Shown in pieces: positions 1-57,500 of a DNA stretch of 64,000 bases. The DNA is from a virus (taxonomy: Duplodnaviria > Heunggongvirae > Uroviricota > Caudoviricetes): IMG/VR virus record IMGVR_UViG_3300042402_007287; one strand, given 5' to 3'. The notes under the pieces are model-generated. The model did no database searches, was not told the origin of the DNA, and was given only the letters and a program-made list of their open reading frames with translations. The position numbers and the translations under genes were made by a program. The first letter of the stretch is position 1; each line of letters opens with the position of its first letter.

Positions 1-242
1 CTCATAACTCCGATGAACTCACATCCGAAGGAACCACTCCATTTATGTGTAATGTCAATCATCATTGGAGCCGCAACCCCCATATCAGCCTTGATACGAA
101 TAGATTTAGGTAATTTAGTAAACCCATCATATAAACTATTAGTTGGTGAGGTTTTTTGTGCTGCTGGTTTTGTTTGTTCAGATATTACTCTTTGTACCAA
201 CTTTACTAAATCCGATTCCGTCAATCTTATAATTTTTCCCAT
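1..242 (-). CDS. N-terminal fragment of a protein that continues past the window edge. Starts with MGKIIRLTESDLVKLVQRVISEQ.
   Basis: Manual translation of the minus strand. ATG at 240-242 with an open frame to the window edge. Carries the shared N-terminal RLTE motif. Makes the + strand ORF 13..564 spurious. Confidence 0.4.
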   Translation of the reverse strand, partial: MGKIIRLTESDLVKLVQRVISEQTKPAAQKTSPTNSLYDGFTKLPKSIRIKADMGVAAPMMIDITHKWSGSFGCEFIGVM

Positions 243-6698: not shown

Positions 6699-7022
6699 AT
6701 GACCACGGAATTAAAAAATGAGGTTGATTCTATTGTTAAATTTGTGAGTAAGTTATTTAACCCCGCTGATGTTGAGCTTAGACCTGTTGAGGACCCCGAG
6801 GGTTGCGTTATCATATTCTATTTTGATGATATCGATGACAGGTATATTAGAAATCCTGACAGTCGTAGTATTAAAACTCATAAGGAAAACATGCTGAATA
6901 GAGAGATAAGGACTTATATTGAGAGATATTTGGGAATCAAAACATCGGGATTACAACCACCTGAGTTTTTCTCACCTGAGGAAAAACATCCTATTTCAGT
7001 ATATGTAATGCACACGAGTTAG
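6699..7022 (+). CDS. small protein, possible distant paralog family member (IERYLGIKTSG)
   Basis: N-terminal helix IVKFVSKLFNPADVEL and a C-terminal xYLGIK motif. Confidence 0.4.
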   Translation: MTTELKNEVDSIVKFVSKLFNPADVELRPVEDPEGCVIIFYFDDIDDRYIRNPDSRSIKTHKENMLNREIRTYIERYLGIKTSGLQPPEFFSPEEKHPISVYVMHTS

Positions 7023-7360
7023 TCGACAACTTCCCCGAACTCAGATTCATAGTGTTGCAAAATTCTATCATAAAAAAGGTCCACAAGAAATATGAATATA
7101 TCTCTGTATGGAAAAACTTCCGAGTCTTCTATAAGTTTGGGATGAATTTCATCCATAGTTAAAGATATTACCGACTCTCCGAAATTGTCGAAAGTAATAG
7201 GTGCTTTTCTGTTTTTTCTTTTGTACATTACCGTCGCATATTCTAACGCTTCTTGAAATGCGTGCTCTAATTCATCATTGGTGACTCTTCTTCTTAGGAA
7301 CATATTCTCATTTAGGTTCATAAGAGTTTTGATGCGGGAGATATCTTCAGAAAGATTCAT
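7019..7360 (-). CDS. hypothetical protein with the N-terminal MNLSEDISRIKTLMNLNEN motif
   Basis: 113-aa ORF. Confidence 0.45.
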   Translation of the reverse strand: MNLSEDISRIKTLMNLNENMFLRRRVTNDELEHAFQEALEYATVMYKRKNRKAPITFDNFGESVISLTMDEIHPKLIEDSEVFPYRDIFIFLVDLFYDRILQHYESEFGEVVD

Positions 7361-9666: not shown

Positions 9667-10368
9667 TTATTTTTTCTTTACACAATTGGGATATCTTTTA
9701 CCGAACATGGTTTTCATCCCTTTCTGAGTATAACCCTTCCAGCATCTTTCATTTAACTCAGACTCATTGGTTTCAAATTTTTCGATTGGTTCCATTTTAC
9801 TTTTCAAAGTGGTACGGAAATTCTGATTGGGTTTTAAAACCATGATTTGTCCCACGTAAAGATTATCGGGAGTTATAGGAGTTTCATAAAAATCAAACCA
9901 ACATCTTCTAAAATCCTCTTTTGTCACTGTTCTCATTTCTTCCAAATATGGGTCAAGAATATATATATTTTTTTCATCAACACCTATCACAACTGAGGAA
10001 TGTCCCTCGGGTGGGTCACCACAAAACCAATCTACAATAACAGGAACACCTGAATTTACTATATTTGATAATTCTGATATTGTAGAATTATTTTTAAGAA
10101 TTACATCGAATCCCAAATTCTCAGCAGCACAAGCCATATCTTCACTACGACATCCCAACTCATAAGAGTGACCACAAGCTGCTGCCAAATCTTTTTCCGA
10201 AATATCTAAACCATAAAAACCCATAACCATTCTGAGGGATGCGGGACCACATGTACTGTCATCAGATTGAAGGTAATGAGGTACGTCAAGCAAATTTGGA
10301 GCTTCCTCCTCTTTGATAACTTGTTTTATAAGTTCAATAAGTTCTTGTTCCGTTAGTCTGACTTTCAT
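9667..10368 (-). CDS. papain-like (C39-like) cysteine peptidase domain protein
   Basis: SDDSTCGPASLRMVMGFYG, with a downstream His in PPEGHSSVVIGVDEKNIYILDPY. N-terminus MKVRLTEQELIELIKQVIKEE. Confidence 0.5.
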   Translation of the reverse strand: MKVRLTEQELIELIKQVIKEEEAPNLLDVPHYLQSDDSTCGPASLRMVMGFYGLDISEKDLAAACGHSYELGCRSEDMACAAENLGFDVILKNNSTISELSNIVNSGVPVIVDWFCGDPPEGHSSVVIGVDEKNIYILDPYLEEMRTVTKEDFRRCWFDFYETPITPDNLYVGQIMVLKPNQNFRTTLKSKMEPIEKFETNESELNERCWKGYTQKGMKTMFGKRYPNCVKKK

Positions 10369-10370
10369 AA

Positions 10371-11636
10371 TTAAATAAATATTTCATTGTCCCAACCAAT
10401 AACAACTCCATGCTCATCTAAAACTAAACCTAATTTTTTCGCAAGTTCATCAGCTTCATGGTCGTTTTTCAATTTACCAAATAACGCCTCACCTTCCATA
10501 GGGTCGTCTATCCTTTGTACTTGGAAGAATAGATTAAATTTATTACCATCTTCAGGTTTGTATCTTATTTTGGGTATGTCACTGTCAGAGGAGACAATAA
10601 ACCAACCTTGTTTTGCGGCATAGTCACCAAACTCTTTGTCAAACCAAGTAACAAACTTTGCAATTCTGGCATATGGATAAACTATCTTGGAATCATCATC
10701 ATGAAGTCTCCCGAAATCATCGACTTTCATACTTTCATTCAGATTTTCATCCCATTTTTGAGTACAAGAATTGAACCAAGGTCCCTCAGGAAAATTTTTA
10801 CCTTGTCTTTTCTCTGTTCGATATTCGGCATAGCGTGGTGGTTTACCTTCAGTGTGAGAACTCAAAAGGGGTAAATCAAAATCTCTTATCTCTTTTTGCA
10901 TATCGTCATAGGTCTCGTAATATTTTATCATCTCACATTCATTATCGAGCGTCCAAGAAATCATGAATTTAGTTTTTTCGGGTGTGTTAGGTTCGAAAGG
11001 TTGTTGCATGATGGGCAATACCCCTGATGGAGTTGTGGATATTTTTATTGGTGGAGATTGAAAATTCGGTTGTATTTGGTGTTTTGTTTGTAGAATCGGT
11101 TTTGGCATTGTTGGTTCATAAATTGTACCACAAATGTTCCCCCACCAACTATATTTTTTATGGTCATAGTCATGATATTGACGTTCGCTCGGATTTTGTG
11201 GGTATTTGGAAAAAGTTATCAAGGAAATGAATTCTGTATCTTTTTTAGGGATAGAACTACTTCCATCTGTTGGTATTTTTGTAACCCAAGCTACACACCA
11301 TTTTCTTACAGGTTTAATTATCGCGTCGGGTTTTTCAGATTGCGAAATCAAATAGTCGTCATCCAATAGTTTTTTATCTTTAACTAACTTGTCGTATTGT
11401 TGATGAAGTCTTGCAACCCAATTGTCTTTATAAACCTCACCTCCCACATAAAAATAAAACTTTGAATTTTTAAATTCATTAGATTTTCTTATTGATTCGT
11501 CGGACAGTCTTTTGGCTTTGTTATAAATTTTTAAGGCCTTCTCATATTCTAATTTGTTCGTGAAAGTATATGTTTCTTGTTCAGAAATCAAACCCATCAC
11601 TTCCCGAATTCTTTTTATGTTTTCTGACAATCTCAT
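10371..11636 (-). CDS. hypothetical protein, 421 aa
   Basis: Long ORF with uniform coding character. N-terminus MRLSENIKRIREVMGLISEQE. Confidence 0.5.
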   Translation of the reverse strand: MRLSENIKRIREVMGLISEQETYTFTNKLEYEKALKIYNKAKRLSDESIRKSNEFKNSKFYFYVGGEVYKDNWVARLHQQYDKLVKDKKLLDDDYLISQSEKPDAIIKPVRKWCVAWVTKIPTDGSSSIPKKDTEFISLITFSKYPQNPSERQYHDYDHKKYSWWGNICGTIYEPTMPKPILQTKHQIQPNFQSPPIKISTTPSGVLPIMQQPFEPNTPEKTKFMISWTLDNECEMIKYYETYDDMQKEIRDFDLPLLSSHTEGKPPRYAEYRTEKRQGKNFPEGPWFNSCTQKWDENLNESMKVDDFGRLHDDDSKIVYPYARIAKFVTWFDKEFGDYAAKQGWFIVSSDSDIPKIRYKPEDGNKFNLFFQVQRIDDPMEGEALFGKLKNDHEADELAKKLGLVLDEHGVVIGWDNEIFI

Positions 11637-14083: not shown

Positions 14084-14401
14084 TTATAGTTTATTTAAAA
14101 TCCAATTTACTCTTCCCCAAACATTTGATTGTCCTTCGTATTTTCTAATCTTAAAACATTCCTTCTCGGTGATAATAACTAAATCTCCTTCGTGTGGCTC
14201 AATAGAACGGTCAATAACGAGGATATTTCCTGTCCTTACTCCAAGTGTGTTTGGACCTTTATATTGAAAATAAAAGGTTGTGTGCACGTCCTGAATGATT
14301 AGGTCATTCAGGTCAAGACGTTTGTCTACATAAGATTCCGCAGGAGATGCAAATCCTGTGGTTCTTGAGCTAATGGATAGTTCTGAACGTAGAGTTGACA
14401 T
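14084..14401 (-). CDS. umuD: UmuD-like protein (peptidase S24 fold); the Ser nucleophile and Cys/Ala-Gly cleavage site appear to be absent
   Basis: GFASPAESYVDKRLDLNDLIIQDVHTTFYF aligns to UmuD [30 protein letters not shown]. The GDSM position reads GPNT. Confidence 0.75.
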   Translation of the reverse strand: MSTLRSELSISSRTTGFASPAESYVDKRLDLNDLIIQDVHTTFYFQYKGPNTLGVRTGNILVIDRSIEPHEGDLVIITEKECFKIRKYEGQSNVWGRVNWILNKL

Positions 14402-14423: not shown

Positions 14424-15017
14424 TTATAAACTATTTTTTATTATCTCAGTAATTTCTTTCCAATTTTTTGTGATTGCTTTTTGAGAATCATTATCTGTCA
14501 TAATCAGACTAACATTACCCTTTTTTTGTATAGGTAACATTTTTGAAACTTTTTTTAATTTGTTATTCTTATCGATGAAACCTAAAACCCCTTTACCTTG
14601 GTATTCAGTTATATTATCTATGAATTGATTTTTCTCCCAAGGTAATTTGAAACTTTTATTTTTATAAAAAAACTTTCGTTTGTTTTCAGGGTCGTTGAAA
14701 GTTAAACCTGTTTCCAAATCTTTGGAAATATTCTTTATAGACTCGAACAATTGAGAGTTGTGATTGTCATCATGAATGTGACCCGAACAAGATGGCGTAG
14801 TAGGTATATTATTTCGGTGTAAAAATTCAACCAAAAGTTTCAAATCATCGTCTACGGTATTGTAAAATGATTCGTTGTTCGGAATTGTAAACTCCCTTGG
14901 TGTTTCATAAAAAAAGAACCAAGGACATTTTTTGGTTTTTAACCATAATCCTTTGTGAAAATCTTCGTGAGGAATAAAATCAGGATTCAATTTCATCTGT
15001 GAAATCTTTGATATCAA
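14424..15017 (-). CDS. hypothetical protein
   Basis: 197-aa ORF. Confidence 0.45.
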   Translation of the reverse strand: MISKISQMKLNPDFIPHEDFHKGLWLKTKKCPWFFFYETPREFTIPNNESFYNTVDDDLKLLVEFLHRNNIPTTPSCSGHIHDDNHNSQLFESIKNISKDLETGLTFNDPENKRKFFYKNKSFKLPWEKNQFIDNITEYQGKGVLGFIDKNNKLKKVSKMLPIQKKGNVSLIMTDNDSQKAITKNWKEITEIIKNSL

Positions 15018-15774
15018 AATCTTTTACAAAAGCACCAAAAGCATCTTTGTAGGACTTTTGACTCTCATCATTGACACTTTCTGTATATTGCCAGTTCCAA
15101 TAGAGTTTATTGTTTATATCAAAACCATAAAATCTATGTATCTCTTTTTGTAGTTCTATTACTCCTTCACCGTTGAAATTTTGTCCCACGGAAATCATTC
15201 CGCTTTCAATACCCTTCACAACATTTTTCTCCCCCAAAGTTGTGTGTCTGTTCTGAATCCAAGTGAGTCTTTCAATTAAATTTTGATAAAACATATTTGC
15301 AGAACCCCATCTCACTGAGGAGAAAAATATAACACAATCGGATTCAAATAGTTCTTTAGATATTTTCCAAAGCTCATCATACTTAAAATTTATAGAAGCC
15401 CAACATCTATGGTTACCCGTTGGATTTTTTTTCTTGTCTTTTAGTTCTGCCTTGGCTATCCCACAAGAATTACCCTCTTTTCTTGAAACATTACCCTCAC
15501 AAGGGTGAATTTTCAGTTCAGTTACATCTATGAATTTAGCTTTGTCACCTAATTCTTTGGCAATATACTCTGCCAATATCCTTGATTTGGGAATGTCAAT
15601 TTTGTTCTCGTCCCAATTGTATCTGTTTGAACAACTAAGTAATAAAACTTTTTCTTTTTTTTGTAAGGCTTTAATGGTCTCATCGAGTTTTTCCAACCCG
15701 TGTTTACGAACATTTTCCTCTGAGAGCATTATCTCTCTGATTTTCAGTAATTCTTGTTCTAAAACTAAATTCAT
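14980..15774 (-). CDS. flavodoxin-like fold protein, possibly an NAD(P)H-dependent FMN reductase / iron-sulfur flavoprotein-like
   Basis: VLLLSCSNR...; a compact Cys cluster HPCEG..SCG..HRC; DCVIFFSSVRWGSANMF. N-terminus MNLVLEQELLKIREIMLSEEN. Confidence 0.35.
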   Translation of the reverse strand: MNLVLEQELLKIREIMLSEENVRKHGLEKLDETIKALQKKEKVLLLSCSNRYNWDENKIDIPKSRILAEYIAKELGDKAKFIDVTELKIHPCEGNVSRKEGNSCGIAKAELKDKKKNPTGNHRCWASINFKYDELWKISKELFESDCVIFFSSVRWGSANMFYQNLIERLTWIQNRHTTLGEKNVVKGIESGMISVGQNFNGEGVIELQKEIHRFYGFDINNKLYWNWQYTESVNDESQKSYKDAFGAFVKDFDIKDFTDEIES

Positions 15775-23447: not shown

Positions 23448-24323
23448 ATGACAGATGAAAGGTTGAAAAGGTTGGCACAGCAACTTATCGGAATGTTCCG
23501 TAACGTTGAACATAACAATGACATTTTTAATGTGTTGAAAAAGGTCGCAAAAAAACAAGCAATATATTTTTCTAGTTTTACTCCTCAGGAGTTTTTGAAA
23601 TTTTATTTTTATATCTTGTCCTTGAAAAAAAAGGGAAATTTCGAATTCGCCGATTTCGCTTTGGAAAATCTTTTCTTCGCATCTCTCTTTTGGAAAACAG
23701 GTTCACAATATGTTGAGGAGTGTGGTGATTGTTATGGTGAAGGAAGATTTGAATGCTCAGAATGTGACGGAAGTGGTAACGAGTCGTGTTCGGAGTGTGA
23801 TGGTAGTGGTCAAGTAATTTGTAGTGATTGTGATGGGGAAGGTAAAATAGAAGGTGACGCAGGTGAAAAGGTTTCTTGTGACATGTGTGACGGAAGTGGA
23901 GAAGTTGATTGCGAGGAATGTGATGGCGGAGGTACAGTCAATTGTAGTCGTTGTGACGGTGAATCCCGACTTGATTGTCATAACTGTAATGCCGATGGCG
24001 AGTTAGAAGGTACGGATTCATCTATCGAGCTTATATTCATTTGTTCTTGGGATAAAAATCTAAAGAATCTTTGTGAATTAAATGTCGGGAGACCCGAACC
24101 TGTCGGAGCAAGGGAAAACATCGAAAACAACCCGAATATAATAACTCTCAATTATAGAGAATGGGGTGATTTAGATATAGAATTTTTAGAAGAGATAGAA
24201 GAAGGCGTTGTTTACTGTAATGAATTCGATGAGGAAAAACAAATTTTACTCAGTCCTCAGTTCGAAATCAGATATTACGGTTTCGATAGTTCACCTAAAA
24301 ATATAGATGAGTTTATCCAATAA
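23448..24323 (+). CDS. protein with eight DnaJ-type CxxCxGxG zinc-finger repeats
   Basis: CGDCYGEG, CSECDGSG, CSECDGSG, CSDCDGEG, CDMCDGSG, CEECDGGG, CSRCDGES, CHNCNADG. Confidence 0.6.
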   Translation: MTDERLKRLAQQLIGMFRNVEHNNDIFNVLKKVAKKQAIYFSSFTPQEFLKFYFYILSLKKKGNFEFADFALENLFFASLFWKTGSQYVEECGDCYGEGRFECSECDGSGNESCSECDGSGQVICSDCDGEGKIEGDAGEKVSCDMCDGSGEVDCEECDGGGTVNCSRCDGESRLDCHNCNADGELEGTDSSIELIFICSWDKNLKNLCELNVGRPEPVGARENIENNPNIITLNYREWGDLDIEFLEEIEEGVVYCNEFDEEKQILLSPQFEIRYYGFDSSPKNIDEFIQ

Positions 24324-24561
24324 TTTTGGAAACCGCAGTGAGAAACTCAGGGTCGTCCTTGTACTTTTGAACCTTTCTGATAACAAACTCATCTTTATAT
24401 CTTAGTCCAAGGATAAAATCCATTATTTGTTCTGGTTCATAATCATCTTTTTTCAAGACATCTACAATCTTTTTCAGTGCAGACCTGAATGACATTACAG
24501 GTACAGGTTGTTGTGCCGATACTAATGATTCTAATTGTGATTCGGAAATTAAATAATTCAT
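24313..24561 (-). CDS. hypothetical protein, shortened to the internal ATG (MNYLISESQ...)
   Basis: The long version 24313..24765 overlaps + gene 24594..25064 by 170 nt. Confidence 0.3.
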   Translation of the reverse strand: MNYLISESQLESLVSAQQPVPVMSFRSALKKIVDVLKKDDYEPEQIMDFILGLRYKDEFVIRKVQKYKDDPEFLTAVSKIIG

Positions 24562-30567: not shown

Positions 30568-31980
30568 TTAGTGAATTTTGGATTTCAATGTTTTTTTGAA
30601 TTCTGATGCTAACATTTTAAGAAATTTAATGTATGGAGCATCTTCCTTTTCAGGGTCCCATCTATAGTTCCCTTGAGGCGGTCTCTTACTTCTACCTAAA
30701 TAATTTAAACCACTTATGTTTGTAATACATTTATGTCCACCTGACATGGACTGAAGTAGTTCCCAAGCATTGATTCCTAATTTGTCTAAAATATTTTTTT
30801 CTTCATCCGTAAGTTTAACAAAAGGTTTGTTCATCATTTCCTTTATTTGTGACAAAATTTCTTTACCACCTTGCATATATTGAATTTTACCACCATAAAG
30901 AGCATCAAAATCTTTAAATGTGAAACCTACACTTTCAGGGTTCACCGAAGTTTCACTAATCCATTTGATTGTTGATAAGGGTATTACCCTTGATTGTAAT
31001 TTATCTTTCCATTTTGATAAAACCTCTTGTGCAATTTCACCGAGATTCACACCTTTGAGTTCTCTATCTTTTTTGAATGGATTACACGAAACTTGTAACA
31101 ATCCCATAGGCCAAATCATAATCAAAAAATCCGCATCAGGATTGTTCTTGAAAGGGGTGTATCTGTCATAGGAACCTGCTTTCCTCATATCCCCACCACC
31201 GTACTGAGTTAAAATACTCCCATCTACTTCCAAACCATGATAAGATTTCATTCTTTGTGAATAATCTTGAGAATGGGATTGTAATTTTTCGGGTTGTTCA
31301 GCCCCTGTTTCTTTCATCCACTTTCTTATGTTCGTGAGAATCGAAAGCAGAGATGGCTCAGAATCCATTACAAGATTTTCCATAAACCCACGTCTGTTCT
31401 TGAAGGCTAAAATAAGTTTATTTATAACCAATCCCAAAAGCATTTTGTTCTTTTGTAGAGGTTTCTCTTTATCAAATCTAAAAATGTAATTTATTACATC
31501 CTCGGGAGTAATTTCATTTCTAGCGAAATCTGCAGAATCAACAGTGCTTATCAGACGTATGTCTGAAGATGGAAATAAATCTTTAGGTGAAACAATTTGA
31601 GATATTGTTTCAACGTTAGAACGAGCTTGTCTAAATGATTTGGATGTTTCTTTTTCAGCACCAACTTGTTTATCGTGGTGGTCCGTGTGAATTTTAAACA
31701 TCGGCTTCCCGTGAGCAAAATCGACTAGCACAGGCATCGTGTCACCTTCGGCATCATTTTTTTTTACAGCAAACTCTTTGTCACCATATTGAATTATATG
31801 TGCACCAACAACTTCAATCCCATTGTCCTCAAGATATTTTTTCATCGCTATAGCGGTAGTGACACCGTCTAAGTCTTGGTGAAAATAAATTTCGGCTTTG
31901 GGATATCTCTTCCTCAAAGCCGAAATGTCTCTTATACCTGTTTCTTTTAAAATTTTTTTCATCAATCCCAACCCATCCAA
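30568..31980 (-). CDS. DHH/DHHA1-family phosphoesterase (NrnA or RecJ-like nuclease / pAp-phosphatase family)
   Basis: Motif I HQDLDGVTTA, the DHH motif KIHTDHHDKQ, and a GGH/GGGD DHHA1-like motif near the C-terminus. Confidence 0.55.
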   Translation of the reverse strand: MDGLGLMKKILKETGIRDISALRKRYPKAEIYFHQDLDGVTTAIAMKKYLEDNGIEVVGAHIIQYGDKEFAVKKNDAEGDTMPVLVDFAHGKPMFKIHTDHHDKQVGAEKETSKSFRQARSNVETISQIVSPKDLFPSSDIRLISTVDSADFARNEITPEDVINYIFRFDKEKPLQKNKMLLGLVINKLILAFKNRRGFMENLVMDSEPSLLSILTNIRKWMKETGAEQPEKLQSHSQDYSQRMKSYHGLEVDGSILTQYGGGDMRKAGSYDRYTPFKNNPDADFLIMIWPMGLLQVSCNPFKKDRELKGVNLGEIAQEVLSKWKDKLQSRVIPLSTIKWISETSVNPESVGFTFKDFDALYGGKIQYMQGGKEILSQIKEMMNKPFVKLTDEEKNILDKLGINAWELLQSMSGGHKCITNISGLNYLGRSKRPPQGNYRWDPEKEDAPYIKFLKMLASEFKKTLKSKIH

Positions 31981-32327
31981 TGTAAGAATTTATCGAAAAT
32001 GTCACCTTCTTCAGCCATCAGTTTTTTTAACTTTTTTTGGTCTTCCTTCGGCATTTTCTCCCAAGTATTTATTTCCCAAACTCCATCCGCAGGATAAACT
32101 CCTATCATAGATTGGTATTTTGATATTGCCTGTGCCGTTTGAGAGGTCAAATTATTATCAGTTCTACCGTCAACGGTTAGAGGTTTTTTATTGTCTCCGG
32201 TAATTTTTTTATCAATTAAAAATCTTTGTATTGCTCTAATGAAACTTCTTGTTTCATTTTGTTCATTTATAACCCTTGTTACGATTCTTTCCAAATCTGT
32301 TTCGGTAAGTCTGACAATTTTCTTCAT
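31962..32327 (-). CDS. hypothetical protein with the N-terminal MKKIVRLTETDLERIVTRVINEQ motif
   Basis: 121-aa ORF. Confidence 0.5.
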   Translation of the reverse strand: MKKIVRLTETDLERIVTRVINEQNETRSFIRAIQRFLIDKKITGDNKKPLTVDGRTDNNLTSQTAQAISKYQSMIGVYPADGVWEINTWEKMPKEDQKKLKKLMAEEGDIFDKFLHWMGWD

Positions 32328-40186: not shown

Positions 40187-41034
40187 ATAAAATAAGAAAT
40201 ATAATCACCAATCTAATATTGGAGGCACAGAGATATAAATTTTCTGATGATGTGAGAGATAGAATGAAATCCGTCACAGAAAAATTATGGTCTGATAGAA
40301 ATAAACCTTATAAAGGAAAAGAACTAGTTGATGTCATTCCTTTTAAATTAGCCGATGGAGTAGAGGGTTTAGCTAGAGTCGTGGTAAACCCAAGACTACC
40401 CTACATGGGTCAGATGGGTACAAAACCTCAAAAGTCAGTCGACCCGGCAGATATTGTAATCGAAGTAAATCCAAAACACTACGAGTCAAAAAAAACACTT
40501 TATCTTACACTATATCATGAAATGATACATGCCAGTGACCCAACACAATCTCATTTGTTTAGTCCCAAATATATGGTGACTTACAATGAGAAATCAGATA
40601 AAGATTATTGGGGTCATCCAATAGAATTTTTTGCAATTTCAAATGAATTTTTGGAGGGTTTGGTTCTCGAATTTGAAAGAAGAGTTAAAAGAAACAGAAA
40701 AATTGAAAACCTACAATTTTTAGAAAAATCATTAAAAAATATAATCAATTATTTTGCCAAGGGTGACCCACTATCTAAACTCTCGAAGGATATTTTATTT
40801 AGAATAAATGATGAACATTTGGGAAATGACCTTATCAGAGTTTTCAAAAATTTAACCACCGATAATCCTCAACTTGCAGATTTTATGTCTGAGAGAGGAG
40901 GAGAAGAACCTTACTACATTTATTATGTTGAATTGATTAAAAAGTATAACCCAGAAATTTGGAAAAAATTTCTGTCGATGTTATACCAAACTGGTTTCGA
41001 AATAAGAGATTTAATTCAAAAGACCGAAATCTAA
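40183..41034 (+). CDS. HExxH motif protein ([13 protein letters not shown]); start set to the ATG at 40183 ([16 protein letters not shown])
   Basis: The track start at 40162 overlaps the upstream gene. ATG 40183 forms an ATGA junction. Confidence 0.45.
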
Positions 41035-44000
41035 ATAAGTCCTCTTTCCTTGGCTATTGTCTCTAACTCATCAAGTTTTATTTCTTTAGATTCCAAAATC
41101 AAGGATTGTTCTTTAATGGCTTCTAAACAAACAGCTATTACTTCAGCATATTTTACCATGAAATATGCGTTCTCGGTGTTTTTCTTGAAAACCAATTCAG
41201 GTAATATATGACCTATTTCTTGGGCAATGAATCCAATATCATGTTTACCTGATTGGGATGTTTCATCATTTAATTTATTCCAATAGAATGAAACACCTCT
41301 CAATTTCAGGACTTTTTCTAGTGGGGATTGTATTTCTTTTACGTCCTTTTTTAATCTTAGGTCAGAACCAGTGGTACCTTGTGCACCTTGAGCACCTTGT
41401 AAACCATTTGGACCGGTTGCACCTTGTGCACCTTGTGGACCTTGACCACCTTGTGGTCCTTGGGCACCTTGACCCCCCTGAGGTCCTTGAGCTCCTGTGG
41501 CACCACCACCGCCTTGAGCACCTTGGCCTCCTTGCGGACCTTGAGCACCTTGAGCACCTTGGGCACCACCACCGCCTTGAGAACCTTGTCCTCCGGCGGT
41601 ACCCTGAGCCCCTGTGGGACCTTGAGAACCTTGTCCACCTATTGGACCTTTGGGACCTTGAGCTCCTTGAGCACCTTGAGCACCTCCAGGTCCTGTTGGA
41701 CCCTGAGCCCCTTGAGCTCCTCCTCCACCTTGGGAACCTTGACCTCCCGTAGGACCTTGAGCCCCTTGAGCACCACCAGGTCCTTGAGCTCCTTGAGCAC
41801 CTTGACCTCCCGTAGGACCTTGAGCCCCTTGAGCACCACCAGGTCCTTGAGCTCCTTGAGCACCTTGACCTCCCGTAGGACCCGTAGGTCCTTTGGGACC
41901 AATAGGACCAGGAACACCAGTTGCACCGTTTGCACCGATATGACCTTGTGGTCCCTGTGCACCTTGTCCTCCCTGAGCACCTTGTGCACCTTGACCCCCT
42001 TTAGGTCCTGTGATACCTGTAGGTCCAGTAGGTCCTTGCGCACCTTGTGCACCTTGACCTCCAGTTGTTCCTTGAAAACCTTGTGAACCGACGGGCCCTT
42101 GAGCACCTTGGGCACCTTGTCCACCACCTCCACCTTGAGCACCTTGTGAACCTGTGGCTCCTTGTGCTCCCTGAGCACCTTGTCCGCCACCAGGACCAGT
42201 TGCACCTTGAGCTCCTTGTGAACCTTGAGCTCCTTGTGCACCCTGTCCTCCTTGTGAACCTTGACTACCAACAGCTCCTTGAGCACCTTGAGCACCTTGA
42301 GCTCCGGCGACGCCCTGAGAACCTTGAGCTCCTGTGGCACCTTGTGCACCTTGGGAACCTTGAGCACCTTGCCCACCTTGTGAACCTTGTGCACCTACGG
42401 GACCTGTCGTTCCTTGTGCTCCTTGTGCACCCTGTCCTCCACCTCCACCTTGAGCACCTTGGGCTCCAACTATACCTTGAGCTCCTTGTGCACCTTGTCC
42501 TCCTCCGGCACCTTGAGAACCTTGGGCTCCTGTGGGTCCTTGAGAACCCTGAGCACCTTGACCTCCTGTAGCTCCTTGAGCTCCTTGGGCACCTGTTGTA
42601 CCTTGAGCCCCTTGGGCACCTTGTCCTCCTTGGGAACCTTGAGCACCTTGGGCTCCTGTTGAACCTTGGGCTCCTTGAGCTCCTGTTCCACCTTGTGAAC
42701 CTTGTGAACCTTGGGCTCCTGTTGAACCTTGAGCACCTTGGGCTCCTGTTCCACCTTGGGAACCTTGGGCTCCTGTTGAACCTTGAGCACCTTGGGCTCC
42801 TTGAGCACCTTGTGGACCTTTAGGACCTTGGGCACCTTGAGCACCTTGTCCTCCCTGAGCTCCTTGAGCTCCTTGACCACCTTGGGACCCTTGCGCACCT
42901 GTTAAACCTTGTGAACCTTGTGCTCCTTGAGCACCCTGTCCACCTTGGGAACCTTGAGCTCCTGTAGGACCGAGAGCCCCTTGTGCTCCTTGAGCACCTT
43001 GCCCACCTTGAGCTCCTTGAGCTCCTGTGAGACCGACAGCCCCTTGAGCTCCTTGAGCCCCTTGTCCACCCTGAGCTCCTTGAGCACCTGTAGGACCAAC
43101 TGCGCCTTGAGCACCTTGAGCACCTTGTCCCCCTTGGGAACCTTGGGCTCCTGTTGTACCTTGGGAACCTTGAGCACCTTGGGCACCTTGTCCACCTTGT
43201 GCCCCTTGAGCACCTGTGAGACCTTTAGCCCCTTGTGAACCTTGAGCGCCCTGTCCACCCTGTGCTCCTTGCGAACCTTGAGCACCTGTTGAACCTTGGG
43301 CTCCTTGGGCTCCTTGACCACCTTGAGAACCTTGAGCTCCTGTGGGTCCCAAAGTTCCTTGTGAACCCTGAGCACCTTGTCCTCCTTGAGCTCCTTGTGA
43401 ACCCTGAGCACCTGTAAAACCTTGTGAGCCTTGTGAACCTTGACCACCTTGTGAACCTTGTGCACCTGTAGGTCCTTGTGACCCTTGAGCACCTTGAGCA
43501 CCTTGTCCCCCTTGAGCACCCTGAGAACCTTGGGCACCTGTTGAACCTTGGGTACCCTGTGCTCCTTGACCCCCTTGAGCTCCTTGAGCACCAGTAGAAC
43601 CTTGTGAACCTTGAGCACCCGTTGGACCTTGAGGTAATTTAGCTCCGACCCATCCTGTTGAATTTATTAAATCTCCCGAGGCATTTGCAAGTTTGTTAGT
43701 AAGTGTTATTGACCCCCCACTGACTCTGAGGTTTGGATAGGAAGTACTTATTCTTGCTAAAGTGGAAGTTAAAGTTCCAAATTTCAACTCACCATTCTCC
43801 ATATACCAGTTAGTGGCAGTTCCTCCAGAATCTATAAGTTGAAAATTGGCTCCATCAGGATAAACAATTATATTTTCATCACCTGAAAATTCAGTACATT
43901 TTCTAACCTCCGTGACAGTTCCTGTCCTATTTATCTTCCAAACCGTTGTATCAACAGAATCCTTTAGATATAAATTAGGTAATAATGGAGAGAAAGTAAT

Positions 44001-44138
44001 AACATTAGTATAACCTGCATCTGTATAGACTACACAACCTCCACTTAGTGATGGACACGGTGTATAAATAGTCTGTGATGCCACAGAATTACACGCATTT
44101 AGATAACTCGTCCCTGAATATACTACGTATGATGCCAT
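41031..44138 (-). CDS. collagen-like (Gly-X-Y) fibre protein, 1035 aa, with a C-terminal intramolecular-chaperone auto-processing (peptidase S74) domain
   Basis: About 730 residues of GAQGSQG-type triplets. The C-terminus [12 protein letters not shown]...FYWN... matches the S74 S|DxRLKxNI cleavage motif of phage tail fibres. Confidence 0.85.
41753..41878. repeat. perfect 63-nt tandem duplication inside collagen-like gene 1
   Basis: The unit encodes a repeated 21-aa [21 protein letters not shown] block. Confidence 0.6.
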
Positions 44139-47122
44139 TAGTTCACTACTTGTTTTAATCTATTTATTCTATCTTTCACTGACAATATTCTTTTTTGATT
44201 CTCTTTAATTGATGCGAAGGCTAAACTAACCAAGAGTCCATAATCCATAGATTTGTATCCATCAGTTGGGTCAGTGTCAACAATCTCAGGAAATACTTTT
44301 TCTACATCTTGAGCTATGAATCCATAAGTATCACCTGTGAACGCTTCTTTAGCATTCAGGTGCTTATGAAATTTAATTTTAGGATGTTCATGGTCCCAAG
44401 TAAATTTAACACCTTGGATTTGTTTCAGACGGGTGAGAGGTTCTTTGAATTCAACTATATTATCTTTTAATCTTTTATCTGACTTAGCGCCTTGTGCTCC
44501 CTGAGCACCTGTGGCACCTGTTGGGCCTGTTGGGCCTGTATTCCCCTTGAAACCTGTTGGGCCTGTTGGGCCTGTGGCACCACCAACACCTGTCGGACCT
44601 TGAGCCCCCTGTGGTCCTGGTACACCTGGAGCACCCTGAGTACTTCCAGCAAATCCTGTGGCTCCTTGAGCACCTGTGGCTCCTGTTCCACCAGGAGCAC
44701 CTGTAGGACCCGTGGCTCCTGTAGCTCCTTGGGACCCTTGTGCACCTGTGTTCCCTCCACCTCCAGTCAATCCTTGTGGACCTTGGGCTCCTTGCGGACC
44801 AGGACCGGGTCCTGTAGAACCTTGAGCACCTTGAGGTCCTGTAGAACCTTGTGCTCCCGAAGTAGCACTTTGAGAACCTTGAGCACCTTGAGCACCTTGA
44901 ACTCCAGGTGCTCCCTGAGCCCCTTGATTAGCACCCTGTGCACCTTGTGCTCCTTGAGCTCCTTGAACTCCAGGTGCCCCTTGAGCGCCTTGGTTAGCAC
45001 CCTGTGCTCCTTGACTTCCCTGAGTACCTTGACCTCCCTGAGCACCTTGAGCACCTTGTGTCGTATTATTTGGTCCAATTGCACCTTGTGCACCTTGTGG
45101 ACCTGTAGCACCTTGTGCACCCTGATTGGCTCCTTGTGCTCCCTGAGAACCTTGAGCACCTTGAGCTCCTTGAGCCCCCTGTGCTCCCTGATTAGCACCT
45201 TGTGCACCCTGTGAACCCTGAGCACCTTGTGGACCTGTCGCACCTTGGGCTCCTTGATTAGCACCTTGAGCACCTTGAGCACCTTGAGCTCCTGTAGCAC
45301 CCGTAGCACCTTGTGCTCCTTGATTAGCACCTTGGGCTCCTTGTGCTCCTGTAGCTCCTTGTGCACCGACTGCTCCTGTAGCACCGGCACTTCCACCTTG
45401 AGCACCTTGTGCCCCTTGGGGACCTGTAGCACCCTGAGCTCCTGCCTGTCCTGTTATACCACTTTGGGCACCTTGAGCTCCTTGAGGACCTGTTGCACCT
45501 TGCGCACCCGTGGCACCTGCACTTCCACCTTGGGCTCCTTGAGCACCTTGAGGTCCTTTTGGACCTTGAGCGCCCTGAGCACCTGGACTGGCACCCTGGG
45601 CTCCCTGAGCACCTTGAGCACCTTGAGGACCTGTAGCACCCTGAGCTCCTGTATTTGCACCTTGAGCCCCCTGAGCACCTTGAGCACCTTGAGGACCTGT
45701 GGCGCCTTGAGCACCTTGTACACCCCCTTGGGCTCCTGTCGCCCCCTGAGCACCTTGAGGTCCTGTGGCGCCTTGAGCACCTGTATTTGCACCTTGGGCT
45801 CCTTGAGCACCTTGAGCTCCCGCTGCTCCTGTTGCACCCTGAGCACCTTGTACTCCTCCTTGAGCTCCTATTGCTCCTTGTGCACCTTGTGGTCCTGTGG
45901 CACCTTGAGCTCCTTGGGTACCTCCTTGAGCACCTGTAGAACCTTGTGCACCTTGAGCACCTGTTGCACCTTGGGCACCTTGAAGTCCACCTTGTAATCC
46001 CTGAGCCCCTTGAGCTCCTTGAGGTCCTGTTGCACCTTGTGCTCCTTGTACTCCTCCTTGTGCACCTTGTGCTCCTTGTACCCCCGTAGGACCTGTAGCC
46101 CCTTGAGCACCTTGTACTCCTCCTTGAGCACCTTGAGCTCCTTGAGCACCTTGACCACCTTGAGCACCTTGAGCTCCTGTGTTTGCCCCTTGGGCCCCTT
46201 GAGCACCTTGTGGTCCTGTAGTACCTATAGCACCTTGAGCACCTTGTACTCCTCCTTGAGCACCTGTAGCACCTTGTGTACCCTGAGTACCCTGAGCACC
46301 TTGTGCACCAGTATTTCCTCCCTGAGCACCTTGTGCACCTTGAGTTCCCTGTGCACCTTGAGCACCTTGGGCTCCGGTATTGGCTCCTTGAGCTCCCTGA
46401 GCACCTAAATCACCTGTGGCACCGACGGCACCTTGAGCACCTTGAACTCCTCCTGTAGCACCTACCGCTCCTTGGGCTCCTTGGGGACCTGTCGCACCCT
46501 GAGCACCTGTGTTTGCACCTTGAGCACCTTGAGCACCTTGAGCTCCCTGACCACCCTGAGCACCCTGAGCTCCAACTGTTCCTCCTTGAGCACCTTGAGC
46601 TCCTTGGTTACCTTGAGCTCCTGTGGCTCCTTGAGCACCCGTATTTCCACCCTGAGCTCCTGTGGCACCCTGAGCTCCTTGAGACCCAATTGTACCTTGA
46701 GCACCTTGTGTTGTGTTTGCCGCACCTTGTGCGCCTGTTGCTCCTTGGGCACCTGTAGCACCTTGAGCTCCTGTATTTGCACCTTGAGCTCCTTGAGCTC
46801 CCTGACCACCTTGGGCTCCCTGAGCACCTTGAGCTCCCTGAGCACCAGCGATACCGGCAGTTGGTCCGACCCAAACACCTCCAGAACCTATGAATTGTGA
46901 GGCGTTGAAATATAGTGACTGTGCGGAAGCCCCTGAGGTTGTGACACCATTGTCTGAACCTTTTGTACCAATTACAAAATTATTTGAAATTGACCCAGCA
47001 GACAGACTTATTGCGTCAGTTAAAACGTTGAATTGTAATTTATTAGTTCCATCATCAAAAATAAAATGAGGGTCAGTGTTCCACGTTCTACCGGTAGGAT
47101 ATATAATTACATTAGATGGCAT
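44138..47122 (-). CDS. collagen-like fibre protein, 994 aa, with a C-terminal S74 chaperone domain
   Basis: C-terminus [18 protein letters not shown]...[10 protein letters not shown]. Joined to the flanking genes by TAATG overlaps. Confidence 0.85.
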
Positions 47123-50100
47123 TATCTCAATTTAATTTCTAATTCGTCTACTTGTTTAGTTATCTCTTCAATAAATACTTGTTGTTCTTTTATACCTTCA
47201 ACTACAACAGAATTTAATTTCTTGTAGTCAATGTAATAATATCCATCAGGACCGATTCCAACAGCTTCAGGGAAATGAATTCTTACGTTTTGTGCAATTA
47301 GACCTATCTGATGTAATCTTCCCATCTGAGCAAAATATTCATACTCTTCTTTGGTACCCCAATTTTTTTCGTTCCAATCATACTCAACAGTTTCTATTTC
47401 CAATATTTTTATAAGAGAATCTTTCAAGGTTTCAATACCTGTTTTAAGTTTCACGTCAGAATAAGCACAAGCCTGCTGATAGGTACCATTACCACAAGTG
47501 GCGTTTAATGAATAACATGCACTATTCCATTGTTCCCAGTTATAAGTATTCCAATCACAAGTACCATTTGAACAATTCGTAGCATCGAAATATTTGTTTT
47601 GTGTGGCTGTGTAAGCAGTTTGAGTGTATGGATAAACGTTGGGTACAGTGATATTACAAACACCTACACATGGGTTTCTACTTCCTGTAAGAGCAATAAT
47701 ACTATTCAGTTGACATGTTACACCTCCAGGTCCAACAGCTCCTTGGGAACCTTGAGCACCCTGCCCTCCTGTTGCACCTAATGAGCCTTGTGTACCTTGA
47801 CCACCTGTAGGACCTTGTGGTCCTGTGGCACCTGTAGGTCCAGGTGCTCCTGTTGGTCCCTGAGGACCTTGTGGTCCAGTTGGACCAGGACCCCCTGTAG
47901 GACCTGTAGCACCCTGAGGTCCCTTTGGACCTTGTGGTCCTTGAGGTCCTGTGGCACCTCCTCCTCCTTGAGCACCTTGTGCCCCGCCAGGTCCTGTAGG
48001 ACCACCTGGACCTTGTGGACCTTGGGCTCCTGTGGCTCCAGTTGCTCCTTGAGGTCCTACAGCCCCTTGTGAGCCTGTGGCACCTCCCGCACCTTGGGGT
48101 CCAATAGCACCCGTGGCACCTGTATTTCCTTGAGGTCCTGTAGGACCCGTTGCTCCCTGTGCACCAGGATGTCCTGTATTACCTGACGGACCTTGTGGGC
48201 CAGTTGGACCGACCGCTCCTTGAGCACCAGGATGCCCCGTAGCTCCCGGTACGCCGGTCGGACCGGTATTTCCTTGAGCTCCTTGAGGTCCTTGGGAACC
48301 TTGTGAACCCTGAGCACCCGGACTACCTCCTGGTCCTGTAGCACCTTGTGCACCTGGATGTCCTGTGAAACCTGGTGCCCCCTCGTTACCAGTACCTCCA
48401 CCAGCACCTTGAGCACCAGGATGGCCAGTAGCACCTGTAGGTCCTTGAGGTCCTTTGGGTCCTATGGCACCTTGAGCTCCAGGATGTCCTGTACCACCCC
48501 CTTGTCCTTGAGACCCAGTAGGTCCACCTGCACCTTGTGCCCCCGGATGACCTGTCTGACCTTGAGCACCCGTTGCTCCCGCTGAACCTTGCGGTCCTTG
48601 CGCTCCAGGATGACCTGTGAATCCATTAGGTCCTTTTGGTCCGGCCGCACCCTGACTACCTTGGGCACCAGGATGTCCTGTAGCCCCTTGTGAGCCTTGT
48701 GGTCCTGTGGCACCTTGTGGGCCTTGAGCACCAGTGTGTCCTGTGGCTCCTTGTGAACCTTGTGGTCCTATCGCTCCTTGGGGACCTTGGGCACCTGGAT
48801 GACCTGTTCCACCACCCGCCCCTTGCGAACCTTGTGGTCCTGTGGCACCCTGAGCCCCTGTGTTACCTGTACCACCTGCGGGTCCTTGAGCTCCCTGAGG
48901 TCCTGTAGCCCCTTTCGGTCCAACCGCCCCTTGAGCACCTGTGTTACCTCCAGGCCCTGTTGGTCCTGTAGCACCTTGTGCACCAGAATGACCCGTATTA
49001 CCCGCAGGTCCTTGAGCTCCTTGTGGTCCTGTAGCCCCTGTCGGTCCTACCCCACCTTGGGCACCTTGAGCACCTGAAAGTCCTGTCGGACCAGTTGCTC
49101 CTTGTGGCCCCACAGCACCCTGAGCCCCCGTATTACCTGTGTCTCCTTTTGGTCCCACAGCACCTTGTGGTCCTGCAGGTCCTGTAGCTCCTGTATCACC
49201 TGTTGGGCCTGTGGTACCTGTGGCACCTTGTGGTCCCACATTACCTGTATTTCCTGTAGGTCCTTGTGGTCCCTTTGGACCAATCGCACCTGTGGGCCCT
49301 ACCGCACCAACATTACCTGTGAAACCTTGTGGACCAGGATTTCCTGTGGCTCCTTGTGCCCCTGTGTTTCCAGTATTCCCTTGTGCTCCTTTGGGTCCTT
49401 GAGCTCCTATAGCACCGGTGGGTCCAACGGCTCCTTGAGACCCTGTGACACCCGTAGGTCCAGGATTTCCTGTAGCACCCTGAGCGCCAGGATGTCCTGT
49501 ATTTCCTGTGGGTCCTGTTCCACCTGTGTTTCCTGTTGCACCTTGTGCACCTGAAAATCCTTTTGGACCTTGAGCTCCTTGTGGTCCTTGAGCACCTTGT
49601 CCACCTGTTGGTCCTACAGGTCCTTGAGCACCTGTATTACCTGTGGGTCCTGTAACCCCAATCGCACCCTGTGCTCCTGTATTACCAACGGCTCCCGTTG
49701 GTCCTTGTGGACCAGGGTGTCCACTTTGTCCTGTAGGTCCAGGGTTACCTGTATTACCTGGCGCACCTGCTGACCCTTGTGCTCCTGTGGCACCCTTGGG
49801 TCCATTGTTACCTTGAGCACCCGTATTTCCTTGTGCTCCGGCAGTTCCTTGAGCACCCTTAGGCCCAAATGTACCTTGAGCACCTTGAGGTCCTGTGGCG
49901 CCTGCAGCACCAATAGCACCTTGTGCTCCTGTGTTACCTATTGCACCCGTAGGACCTGTATTTCCGTTGAATCCTTTTGCACCCTGAGAACCAGCTATAC
50001 CTGTTGTGGGTCCAATCCAATTGTTTGTGGCATTTATTACCTGAACCCCTCCTATTGCAAGGTAATTTCCTACAAAAATAGTGTTTACTGAAACTGTAGA

Positions 50101-50283
50101 ATTTGCAGGGTCTACTGTCATCAAATTTGTATCACCAACAGTATTACCGCTGAATTTAATTTTACCTGAAGGTGTAACCGTCAGAATAACCTGACCCGTG
50201 GTACCCTCATAACTTATAAATGGAGTACGGTTAGCAGTCCTCTCAGTGAAATTACTCGGAACAATTAAAATATTTTTTCCCAT
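47122..50283 (-). CDS. collagen-like fibre protein, 1053 aa, with a Cys-rich domain of about 100 aa before the C-terminal S74 chaperone domain
   Basis: ...GVTCQLNS...[45 protein letters not shown]... Confidence 0.85.
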
Positions 50284-56441: not shown

Positions 56442-56591
56442 TGGAAGAATCTCAAGGTTGTAGTAAATGTAAAAAAAAATCTTTATTCAAGACTGTAACT
56501 CCGATGTTATTTTTCGGTTTTTACATATTAGCTTCAGCAATTTACGGTAACTACGTTCTTATTAAACTATTGATAAATTTTTTCAAGTAGG
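56442..56591 (+). CDS. small membrane protein, 49 aa (MEESQGCSKCKKKSLFKTVTPMLFFGFYILASAIYGNYVLIKLL...)
   Basis: Manual translation in the 365-bp gap between dam and dnaJ. Confidence 0.25.
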
Positions 56592-57500
56592 TCTATCAAA
56601 TTTGACATGTATTTTGATGAACATGTCTCCTGAACTGTATCCCTTACCCCTAAGCCTCAAAGGCTTCGAAGTGTCAAAATTTTTCGGAGCGGGAACTATA
56701 AGTTCTCCATCTGGGTGTGGTATTGAATATTTATCCTTCAATAGGTCCTCATAATTGAGATAAAGGTTATATACTAAATCACTACCCATTTTTTCGAATC
56801 CTTCGGAACTTTTCAATTCTATCTGAATCAAGAGGTCACCATAATTACCATTTCTATAGTCCCCCATACCCCGTATTCTCACGAATTGTCCACTATCAAT
56901 ACCTTTAGGTATGTTTATCTTTATTTCATTTGCATTACCTAAGGTACCTTTACCTGAACACTTATAACATTTATTTATGAGATTATATCCCCGTCCCTCG
57001 CAATTTGGACATGCCATCCGGACCTGTTGAACTAAAAATCCTGTACCGAATGTTTTCACAATAAAACCTGTACCTTCACATAATCCACAAATTGCCCTGT
57101 CCCCTCCTGTTCCTACGCAAGTATCGCAATGAAGTTCCCTGAAATATTGAATATTTTTTTCTTGTCCTAAATATGATTCTAAAGGGGTCAATTGAAGATT
57201 CAAAATCTTATCTGGTGCTGGATGGTTCCTTGGTGGTTGGAAATTTTGGTTCGAAAACATAGATGCGAAAAAGTCCGAAAATTCACTTCCGTTGTAGGGA
57301 TTAGATTTCTGAAAATCATATTTCTTTCTTTTTTCCTTGTTACTCAGGACTTCATATGCTTCATTGATTTCCTTGAATTTCTCCGCCCCTTGAGGGTTCA
57401 AGTCTGGATGATATTTTTTTGACAGGTTTCTATAACTCTTTTTTATATCATCTTCTGAAGCATTCTCTTCAACTTCTAATAATTTGTAGTAATTTTTCAT
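56583..57500 (-). CDS. dnaJ: DnaJ (Hsp40) co-chaperone: J domain plus a four-repeat CxxCxGxG zinc finger
   Basis: KNYYKLLEV...KKYHPDLNP...AYEVLS contains the HPD motif. Zinc-finger repeats CDTCVGTGG, CGLCEGTGF, CPNCEGRGY, CYKCSGKGT. Confidence 0.88.
   Translation of the reverse strand: MKNYYKLLEVEENASEDDIKKSYRNLSKKYHPDLNPQGAEKFKEINEAYEVLSNKEKRKKYDFQKSNPYNGSEFSDFFASMFSNQNFQPPRNHPAPDKILNLQLTPLESYLGQEKNIQYFRELHCDTCVGTGGDRAICGLCEGTGFIVKTFGTGFLVQQVRMACPNCEGRGYNLINKCYKCSGKGTLGNANEIKINIPKGIDSGQFVRIRGMGDYRNGNYGDLLIQIELKSSEGFEKMGSDLVYNLYLNYEDLLKDKYSIPHPDGELIVPAPKNFDTSKPLRLRGKGYSSGDMFIKIHVKFDRPT

Follow-up and report, generated by a model that had tools for sequence, protein, structure and literature searches.

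A recurrent N-terminal leader on unrelated proteins of large, uncultured T4-like phages

Why would proteins of different predicted function, encoded by one phage, begin with the same short helix? The question is raised by a 64,000-nucleotide stretch of DNA from the virus record IMGVR_UViG_3300042402_007287 of IMG/VR (Caudoviricetes), hereafter the window. It has ~33% G+C, is densely coded, mostly on the minus strand, and showed no near relative among GenBank phages when 14 kb of it were searched by megablast. An earlier note on this DNA listed eleven proteins with variants of one motif at their N-termini, and proposed that it is a targeting or packaging peptide of the kind of the T4 capsid-targeting sequence (CTS). 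Here we analysed this motif, which we call the class A leader, the proteins behind it (the cargo) and the phages that carry it. Packaging into the phage head is the explanation that we favour, tentatively, and we weigh it below against its alternatives.

We back-translated the core of the motif, R-L-T-E-x-D-L-x3-V-x2-V-I-x-E (RLTExDLxxxVxxVIxE), into a degenerate DNA pattern and searched it in IMG/VR. This revealed at least 152 matches at at least 119 loci, against a single match for the reversed pattern. An ATG stands exactly five codons before the arginine in 132 of the 152 matches listed, and six codons before it in another 15. Hence, the locking to the extreme N-terminus described in the earlier note holds for 147 of these 152 matches, and has to be relaxed for the two-module proteins with a second, internal copy that we describe below. 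The full consensus spans 22 residues, M-K-[KR]-[IV]-[IV]-R-L-T-E-S-D-L-x-R-[IL]-V-[KR]-R-V-I-x-E, and the positions that the pattern had left free are conserved as well: K2 in 83% of the copies, [KR]3 in 98%, [IV]4-5 in 95-99%, S10 in 75%, [RK]14 in 94%, [IL]15 in 100%, and [KR]17 and [RK]18 in 95% each. Wide variation within the core is restricted to positions 13 and 21. It returns after Glu22, where the next three residues are almost never hydrophobic and are often acidic. The class A leader thus reads as a short hydrophobic stretch, a T-E-S-D helix cap and a predicted amphipathic, basic helix.

How widespread is this peptide, and has it been described? An exhaustive profile search with window sequences and database fragments (29-70 residues) against 1.84 billion representative proteins matched 8009 protein clusters at E ≤ 1e-3 and 1298 at E ≤ 1e-10, with best E-values down to 1e-21. 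Nearly all of these matches begin at residue 1. By comparison, the 596 Gb of bacterial and archaeal genomes in GTDB contain four matches to the pattern, all on short contigs of metagenome-assembled genomes. The consensus leader was not found by tblastn in 50,697 GenBank phage records, nor did the 121-residue class A protein of the window have a tblastn match in GenBank phages. A scan of 128 leader proteins against NCBIfam and Pfam gave no model of the leader, PHROGs have none either, and the peptide strings RLTESDL and LTESDL were not found in the full-text literature, where searches by topic did not retrieve the motif. The earlier statement that the motif is not recognisable from any described system therefore stands for these databases, the GenBank phages and the searchable literature. 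We regard the leader as an undescribed sequence family.

The simplest explanation would be trivial: chance resemblance of N-termini rich in K, E, I and L, whole-length paralogy, or a conserved DNA element that happens to be translated. The genome is A/T-rich (~33% G+C), and five of the eleven instances listed in the earlier note are no better than expected from composition. Yet composition does not account for a motif found once in reverse and at least 152 times in the forward direction, nor for the E-values above. Paralogy is rejected too, since the C-terminal parts of the 136 complete leader proteins of at least 55 residues fall into 95 clusters, and conservation stops at about codon 23. As for DNA, a nucleotide logo of 121 distinct copies showed that third codon positions carry little information, that the region upstream is A/T-rich and lacks both a Shine-Dalgarno sequence and a fixed promoter, and that conservation does not extend beyond codon 23. 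Since synonymous sites are unconstrained, selection acts on the peptide. This excludes a promoter, a ribosome-binding site or a recombination cassette. Taken together, we give next to no credence to these trivial explanations, which are refuted for class A and for two further classes, C and D.

These further classes show that the leader is a type of element rather than one sequence. Class C, which we defined from 79 N-termini in related loci, has the consensus MKxIIITESQLxxLI, and class D the consensus MNLQENIxRIKxMMGLIxE. Both are position-locked, and the class D motif occurs 18 times in N-termini where 3.7 occurrences are expected. Class B takes the form ITEEEKNRILGMH...YLxEQ, or ITEEEKKQIL... 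in orthologues of the 121-residue protein. Classes can replace each other on the same cargo. Among 17 aligned homologues of the 121-residue family, most have a class A leader and two have class B, both of the latter joined to the cargo at the same ...[IL]-[SN]-E-Q junction. In a family of DHH phosphoesterases, the orthologues of loci L090 and L097 start with MKIIITESQYKMLIKESGIRD and that of L007 with MKRIISESGLRN. These proteins have either a full class C leader (MKIIITESQYKMLIKE followed by SGIRD) or a stub (MKRIISE followed by SGLRN), and the copy in the window has a stub (MKKILKE followed by TGIRD). Finally, full-length phage orthologues of a C39-like peptidase encoded in the window carry a variable leader of ~22 residues, and their homologues in Patescibacteria start directly at the peptidase domain. 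Because classes are swapped, the cellular C39 homologues are leaderless and DHH orthologues occur with and without a leader, we interpret the leader as a detachable, modular add-on.

All these leaders end in the same way. The T4 gp21 protease cuts after Glu at [LI]-x-E. Class A ends in V-I-x-E. The search pattern prescribed V19, I20 and E22, of which I20 and E22 are also at least 90% conserved in an unbiased alignment of orthologues. The other classes end in [FYL]-L-x-E-Q or L-Y-E-Q (B), L-I-x-E-S (C) and [LI]-[IL]-x-E (D), and the stubs in I-[SL]-[EK]-E. Hence, at the level of sequence, every class closes on a site of the type cleaved by gp21-family proteases, [IVL]-[IL]-x-E. Among 716 other proteins encoded at these loci, the first 25 residues also show a twofold enrichment of hydrophobic-[LI]-x-E, which is not the case for the controls with K or D in place of E.

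The phages that carry the leader have the corresponding protease. The motif loci contain GPW_gp25, Baseplate_J, a ClpB-like two-ring AAA+ ATPase and, by eye, a DnaK-like Hsp70, and searching them with T4 proteins by phmmer retrieved the gp18 sheath (3.7e-34) and the gp20 portal (1.2e-21). Walking along a related leader-bearing contig, we found, in T4 order, a portal (gp20, 2e-29), a gp21-type protease (1.8e-22; L127:3262-3972, minus strand), a scaffold-like protein (L127:1361-2887) and, matching gp23, a capsid protein (1e-31). In the alignment with T4 gp21, to which it has 37% identity, the protease retains the ELNHP and GVSSRG stretches, which we take to hold the active-site His and Ser. We counted at least 594 relatives of this protease in IMG/VR; the 80 best are at least 81% identical, and some of the relatives lie on contigs of ~280 kb. 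Three contigs have both a class A gene and the gp21-like protease. The scaffold-like protein, in the position of gp22, has 508 residues, is acidic and starts with two [IV]-x-E-N sites. In the capsid protein, alignment with T4 gp23 predicts a maturation site L-I-N-E/AAA (the slash marks the cut), the same tetrapeptide type as V-I-N-E/Q in the 121-residue protein of the window. A few genes upstream of the portal, we also noted a conserved protein of 408-486 residues (L127:10507-11835, minus strand, with relatives in ~10 loci). It begins M-x-x-L-[KR]-P-[LI]-G-S-E-K-L-[EQ]-G-M-[DE]-K-I-x-R-I-M-E-I-A-R-Y, and its R-I-M-E-I segment, ~15 residues in from the N-terminus, resembles class D.

The window can be linked to this lineage. 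It has a long block of genes in common with the motif loci, at 50-88% identity, and the orthologues of its flavodoxin-like gene at 14980 are found on contigs that also carry class A genes. These common genes tie it to the contigs with the head module, and we infer that its genome has a T4-type head module as well. Within the window, PHROGs and Pfam searches on 20 larger open reading frames (ORFs) detected no head or other structural genes, giving only collagen-like fibre proteins and enzymes. As judged from gene content, the carriers are abundant, uncultured T4-like myoviruses of ~300 kb. Their hosts are probably Bacteroidota, because a gene on a 280-kb relative (L124:16056-17756) encodes Ig_7 and Por_Secre_tail domains, the latter a type IX secretion sorting domain, and because Shine-Dalgarno sequences are lacking.

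What would the leader do in such a phage? It would bind a conserved part of the assembling prohead, in the scaffold or core, and thereby bring the cargo inside the capsid. A cut by the gp21-family prohead protease behind the conserved Glu of V-I-x-E would then free the cargo of its leader, and the matured cargo would be ejected with the DNA into the next host. This prohead-targeting function, by analogy with the T4 CTS, seems to us quite possible, although we stop short of calling it probable. The idea of a packaging peptide put forward in the earlier note is thus the one that best fits the head module, the type of site and the detachable leader; docking, cleavage, packaging and ejection are steps that we infer from sequence.

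By analogy, the closest known things in function would be the T4 CTS, the propeptides of giant-phage head proteins and the packaging signal of P1 DarB. The T4 internal proteins IPI, IPII and IPIII belong to a highly diverse, fast-evolving set of small proteins whose common feature is the N-terminal CTS only (PMC3012670). In the same way, our leader is an N-terminal peptide common to unrelated, fast-evolving small proteins, ends in a gp21-type [LI]-x-E and is encoded by genes that are often in tandem. The T4 head module of gp20, gp21, gp22 and gp23 is matched in the carriers by homologues of gp20, gp21 and gp23 and by the scaffold-like gene. In contrast to T4, the leader comes in at least four classes on thousands of cargo clusters, with dozens per genome and internal copies. 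For the leader, packaging and cleavage are predicted from sequence. In the giant phage SPN3US, the gp245 protease, whose site is A-x-E, cuts after the Glu and thereby frees two head proteins, gp45 and gp225, of N-terminal propeptides of 20 and 24 residues; giant phages also package and eject many proteins (PMC10052503). Short N-terminal propeptides removed by a gp21-related protease (gp175 in phiKZ, gp245 in SPN3US) are thus a likeness, whereas the A-x-E site differs from [IL]-x-E and these propeptides share no motif across unrelated proteins. In P1, the N-terminal 30 residues of DarB suffice for the packaging of a heterologous protein in the capsid (PMC9024508). This is a single protein, with no family-wide motif and no sequence relation to the leader. 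More distant analogues are the peptides of encapsulins and microcompartments. There, a short terminal peptide or amphipathic helix docks unrelated cargo enzymes inside a protein shell, and a poorly conserved segment joins peptide and cargo, as here. Unlike the leader, they are cellular, usually C-terminal (encapsulins) or poorly conserved (microcompartments), and involve no protease step.

What do the leaders carry? The 136 complete proteins are mostly of 100-250 residues. Only 13 of the 128 leader proteins match any Pfam family, and 11 of these 13 matches are to peptidoglycan-binding families (PG_binding_1 in eight proteins, LysM in two and PG_binding_3 in one). The 121-residue protein matches PF01471 just below the curated cut-off (E = 3.2e-4), and most of its 47 homologues carry a precomputed PF01471. 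Its AlphaFold2 model has a predicted local distance difference test (pLDDT) score of 84-92 over the peptidoglycan-binding domain and below 50 for residues 1-7 and 11-24. The cargo is therefore modelled with confidence as a helical bundle, consistent with a PG_binding_1 domain, and because of its low score the leader is not predicted to pack on it. The C39-like peptidase, of the papain-type cysteine kind (Pfam Peptidase_C39_2 at 2e-16), is free-standing and has 233 residues. At its C-terminus (window 9667-9750, minus strand), we observed a two-Cys motif, CWKGY(x)KGMKTMFGKRYPNCVKK, that is 77-84% identical in the otherwise different proteins P0399-P0402 and may be a second shared module, in this case C-terminal.

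Leader genes with unrelated cargo form tandem arrays, for example 5+2 in L066. There are ~7 of them per 64 kb, and therefore dozens per genome. In 18 of the best 150 proteins (P0168-P0234) the leader is present twice, the second copy being internal and mostly without a preceding Met. About half of these internal copies are preceded, 2-9 residues upstream, by hydrophobic-x-E-[NSQ] (ILE-N, LSE-N, IFE-N, LFE-N, LAE-N, MSE-S). The two-module proteins look as if they were small polyproteins: a cut at hydrophobic-x-E-N would turn the internal leader into an N-terminal one.

The bias towards peptidoglycan-binding cargo (11 of the 13 recognisable proteins) suggests another route: export to the periplasm without a Sec signal, by a leader akin in logic to those of class II bacteriocins that serve C39 peptidase/ABC exporters. 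These double-glycine leaders follow the consensus L-S-x-x-E-L-x-x-I, as in the pediocin leader MKKIEKLTEKEMANIIGG, and the spacing L7-T8-x-x-D11-L12-x-x-I15 of class A matches it. Both are N-terminal amphipathic helices with a conserved leader and variable cargo, and the window even encodes a C39-like peptidase. However, Gly-Gly (or Gly-Ala/Ser) is absent: [KR]-R occupies positions 17-18, and the helix runs on through V-[KR]-R-V-I-x-E to E22. The cargo is folded and of 100-500 residues. The C39-like peptidase itself bears the leader, hence is cargo, and is free-standing, with no ABC transporter fused to it or seen nearby; scans of window proteins against Pfam and PHROGs gave no such transporter either. 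Besides, none of the 128 proteins matches an NCBIfam leader family, and the leader is highly charged, with no hydrophobic h-region. We consider this type of export quite improbable. Canonical Sec, Tat and lipoprotein signals were also rejected, given the alternation of charged and hydrophobic residues, nine charged residues in 22, no h-region and no Cys.

A further candidate is an element for self-association or for binding nucleic acids. The pattern of a hydrophobic strand and then [TS]-E-x-[DE]-L-x-R-[IL] recalls the beginning of ribbon-helix-helix proteins, and the leader could be the first half (strand and helix) of such a fold, binding nucleic acids or itself. Class B could form a strand-helix-turn-helix, and the net charge of the leader is positive. 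Yet none of the 128 proteins is matched by a ribbon-helix-helix model of Pfam or NCBIfam, class A has one helix before the cargo and lacks a second, and peptidoglycan-binding modules and a peptidase are unlike the cargo of DNA-binding regulators. This makes the hypothesis highly improbable.

Several observations weigh against packaging into the prohead. The peptidoglycan-binding bias of the recognisable cargo fits a periplasmic or lysis role at least equally well, and ~7 genes per 64 kb is a large number for packaged proteins. The internal copies imply that a free N-terminus is not strictly required. By eye, MKKIIRLTESDLxRIVKRVIxE and the T4 CTS, which we take to be MKTYQEFIAE, are similar only in the terminal I-x-E; the leader has 22 residues against 10, and almost every position is fixed. 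The [IL]-x-E signature is itself common in a proteome rich in K, E, I and L. A T4 late-promoter-like ATAAATA is found upstream of 17% of the leader genes against 9%, which is a weak enrichment. The T4-type head module is known from related contigs and not from the 64-kb window. Finally, some leader genes lie within a baseplate cluster, which could point to the tail rather than to the head: leader genes of three classes (A, B and C) are intermingled with GPW_gp25, Baseplate_J and a ~1000-residue baseplate-associated protein (L014:693-6654), and one class A gene is directly upstream of gp25 (L057:7332-8161).

These two loci are what one would expect if the leader were an uncleaved anchor by which small accessory proteins are fixed to the exterior of the virion, at the baseplate or tail, like the N-terminal anchors of receptor-binding proteins. 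LysM and other peptidoglycan-binding modules are plausible parts of a baseplate or of a structure contacting the cell wall, and proteins with two leaders would fit multivalent docking. Elsewhere the pattern breaks down: the leader genes are mostly found in accessory regions far from tail genes, as is the case for all seven of the window, dozens of different small proteins per genome are many for one docking site, and the conserved [IL]-x-E end is left unexplained. We consider an anchor of this kind rather improbable.

The neighbourhood of the leader genes also includes chaperones. In locus L062 (4616-8694), a DnaK-like Hsp70, identified by eye, stands beside the two-ring ClpB-like ATPase and adjoins class A genes, and the window has a DnaJ-like gene (56583..57500, minus strand; J domain by eye). 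Together, these genes would be a full disaggregase set in a phage. Could the leader then be a docking helix for a conserved hub outside the virion (the phage DnaK, DnaJ or ClpB-like ATPase, or a host machine), with no packaging at all? Peptides with a hydrophobic core flanked by basic residues are the general type bound by Hsp70, and the leader has such a core and such flanks. Nearly every position of the helix is constrained, as expected for a specific groove, and AlphaFold leaves the leader unpacked. A passage of PMC10052503 cites the N-terminus of T4 gp23 as directing proteins to GroEL, which is a precedent of this sort. On the other hand, motifs bound by chaperones are normally degenerate, and the leader is highly conserved. 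The co-occurrence with chaperone genes is seen only as synteny in one lineage, and a hub explains neither the [IL]-x-E end shared by the four classes and the stubs nor the hydrophobic-x-E-N ahead of internal copies. On balance we consider a non-virion hub unlikely, although it deserves to be taken seriously.

A related but more radical possibility is that leaders A-D are the address tags of a previously unknown sorting system of giant T4-like phages, with a destination other than the prohead. The helix would be read by a conserved receptor of the phage, which would direct dozens of effectors per genome to their place. This receptor might work with the DnaK/DnaJ/ClpB-like machinery as an unfolding and loading motor, much as extracellular contractile injection systems are filled with N-terminally tagged cargo by AAA+ ATPases. 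The effectors might end up in the tail lumen, in the periplasm or in a compartment built by the phage. We regard such a system as decidedly unlikely.

If the leader is a packaging and processing tag, as we tentatively favour, its profile lists thousands of candidate particle-carried, injected proteins straight from metagenomes. In T4 and P1, the packaged proteins are of a class (anti-restriction and host-takeover effectors) that is otherwise almost impossible to recognise by sequence. The leader could then also be used to load foreign proteins into large capsids. The rule is testable: such a tag should end in V-I-x-E and be cleaved there by a gp21-like protease. Whatever the destination, a 22-residue peptide conserved across 8009 clusters points to a specific, conserved and undescribed protein-protein interaction, which would be central to an abundant group of freshwater phages.

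Which genes of the window really carry a leader? We recovered all eleven N-termini quoted in the earlier note at their coordinates. A hidden Markov model (HMM) seeded with two sequences recovered three solid copies, and no more, from the window translated in all six frames. We obtained the same with the class A HMM, which like those of classes C and D was built exclusively from sequences outside the window: no ORF is significant beyond 1..242, 31962..32327 and 9667..10368. Hence, of the four instances described as very clear, three are class A. The fourth, 14980..15774, is not significant by HMM, but the N-termini that we read among its orthologues (80 loci retrieved) are canonical class D leaders, e.g. 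MNLQENIQRIREMMISEE and MSNIIQEEIQKIRKMMLLEE, and because of this we regard it as a genuine, divergent member of class D and not of class A. Among the weaker instances, 7019 and 10371 are significant as class D, and 53982, 40183, 59822, 11633 and 62160 have no profile support, sharing at most a short hydrophobic stretch that ends in [IL]-x-E. The count of ten or more proteins with one common motif is thus reduced to three of class A, the others being class D or unsupported. The earlier list also lacks a class C gene, 24313..24561. As assigned from sequence, seven genes of the window bear a leader, in three classes (A, C and D), all of them in accessory regions far from tail genes (Table 1). We rejected a fifth class, ending ...ILEAQ and including 53982 and 40183, because four cases against 0.3 expected, two of them these window proteins, are too few.

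Table 1. Leaders, cargo and a related stub-bearing gene in the window (64,000 nucleotides), with the evidence for each assignment.
Feature	Position	Strand	Evidence
Class A leader MGKIIRLTESDLVKLVQRVISEQ; ORF 1..242 runs off the left end of the window	174..242	-	HMM E=4.7e-14
Class A leader MKKIVRLTETDLERIVTRVINEQ of the 121-residue protein 31962..32327	32259..32327	-	HMM E=5.2e-13
PG_binding_1-like peptidoglycan-binding cargo of the 121-residue protein	32052..32243	-	PF01471 E=3.2e-4, AlphaFold
Class A-like leader MKVRLTEQELIELIKQVIKEEE of the C39-like peptidase 9667..10368	10303..10368	-	HMM E=5.6e-7
Class C leader MNYLISESQLESLVSAQQ of the 82-residue protein 24313..24561, which starts MNYLISESQLESLV	24508..24561	-	HMM E=1.9e-4
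Class D leader MNLSEDISRIKTLMNLNEN of the 113-residue protein 7019..7360	7304..7360	-	HMM E=2.1e-6
Class D leader MRLSENIKRIREVMGLISEQE of the 421-residue protein 10371..11636	11574..11636	-	HMM E=1e-6
Divergent class D leader MNLVLEQELLKIREIMLSEEN of the 264-residue flavodoxin-like protein 14980..15774	15712..15774	-	N-termini of orthologues
DHH-family phosphoesterase with the 7-residue stub MKKILKE, starts MKKILKETGIRD	30568..31962	-	Weak Pfam DHH match

Other features of the window were noted in addition. A small family of five paralogues, distinct from the leader (1032-1319 and 1822-2295 on the minus strand; 5237-5482, 5491-5754 and 7403-7666 on the plus strand), begins, by eye, with a helix followed by L-P-K-[YF]-P-W-I-[KE]-D, e.g. 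MEEILNNIVSRIILPKFPWIEDF. By eye, too, the ORF at 12456-13661 (minus strand) resembles a Y-family DNA polymerase with the UmuC/DinB-like N-terminus IGIVDCNNFYVSCERVFNP, and near it there is a small UmuD/LexA-like peptidase fragment (14084-14401, minus strand). A 280-residue protein (61315-62157, minus strand), with no match in Pfam or PHROGs, has the motif KEATTSGS-G-[FY]S-P twice and a C-terminal C-x-R-F-P-Y-C-N. Finally, three adjacent ORFs of 1035, 994 and 1053 residues (41031-50283, minus strand) have very strong matches to collagen-like tail-fibre PHROGs, and this block has 44-50% G+C compared with 30-38% elsewhere in the window.

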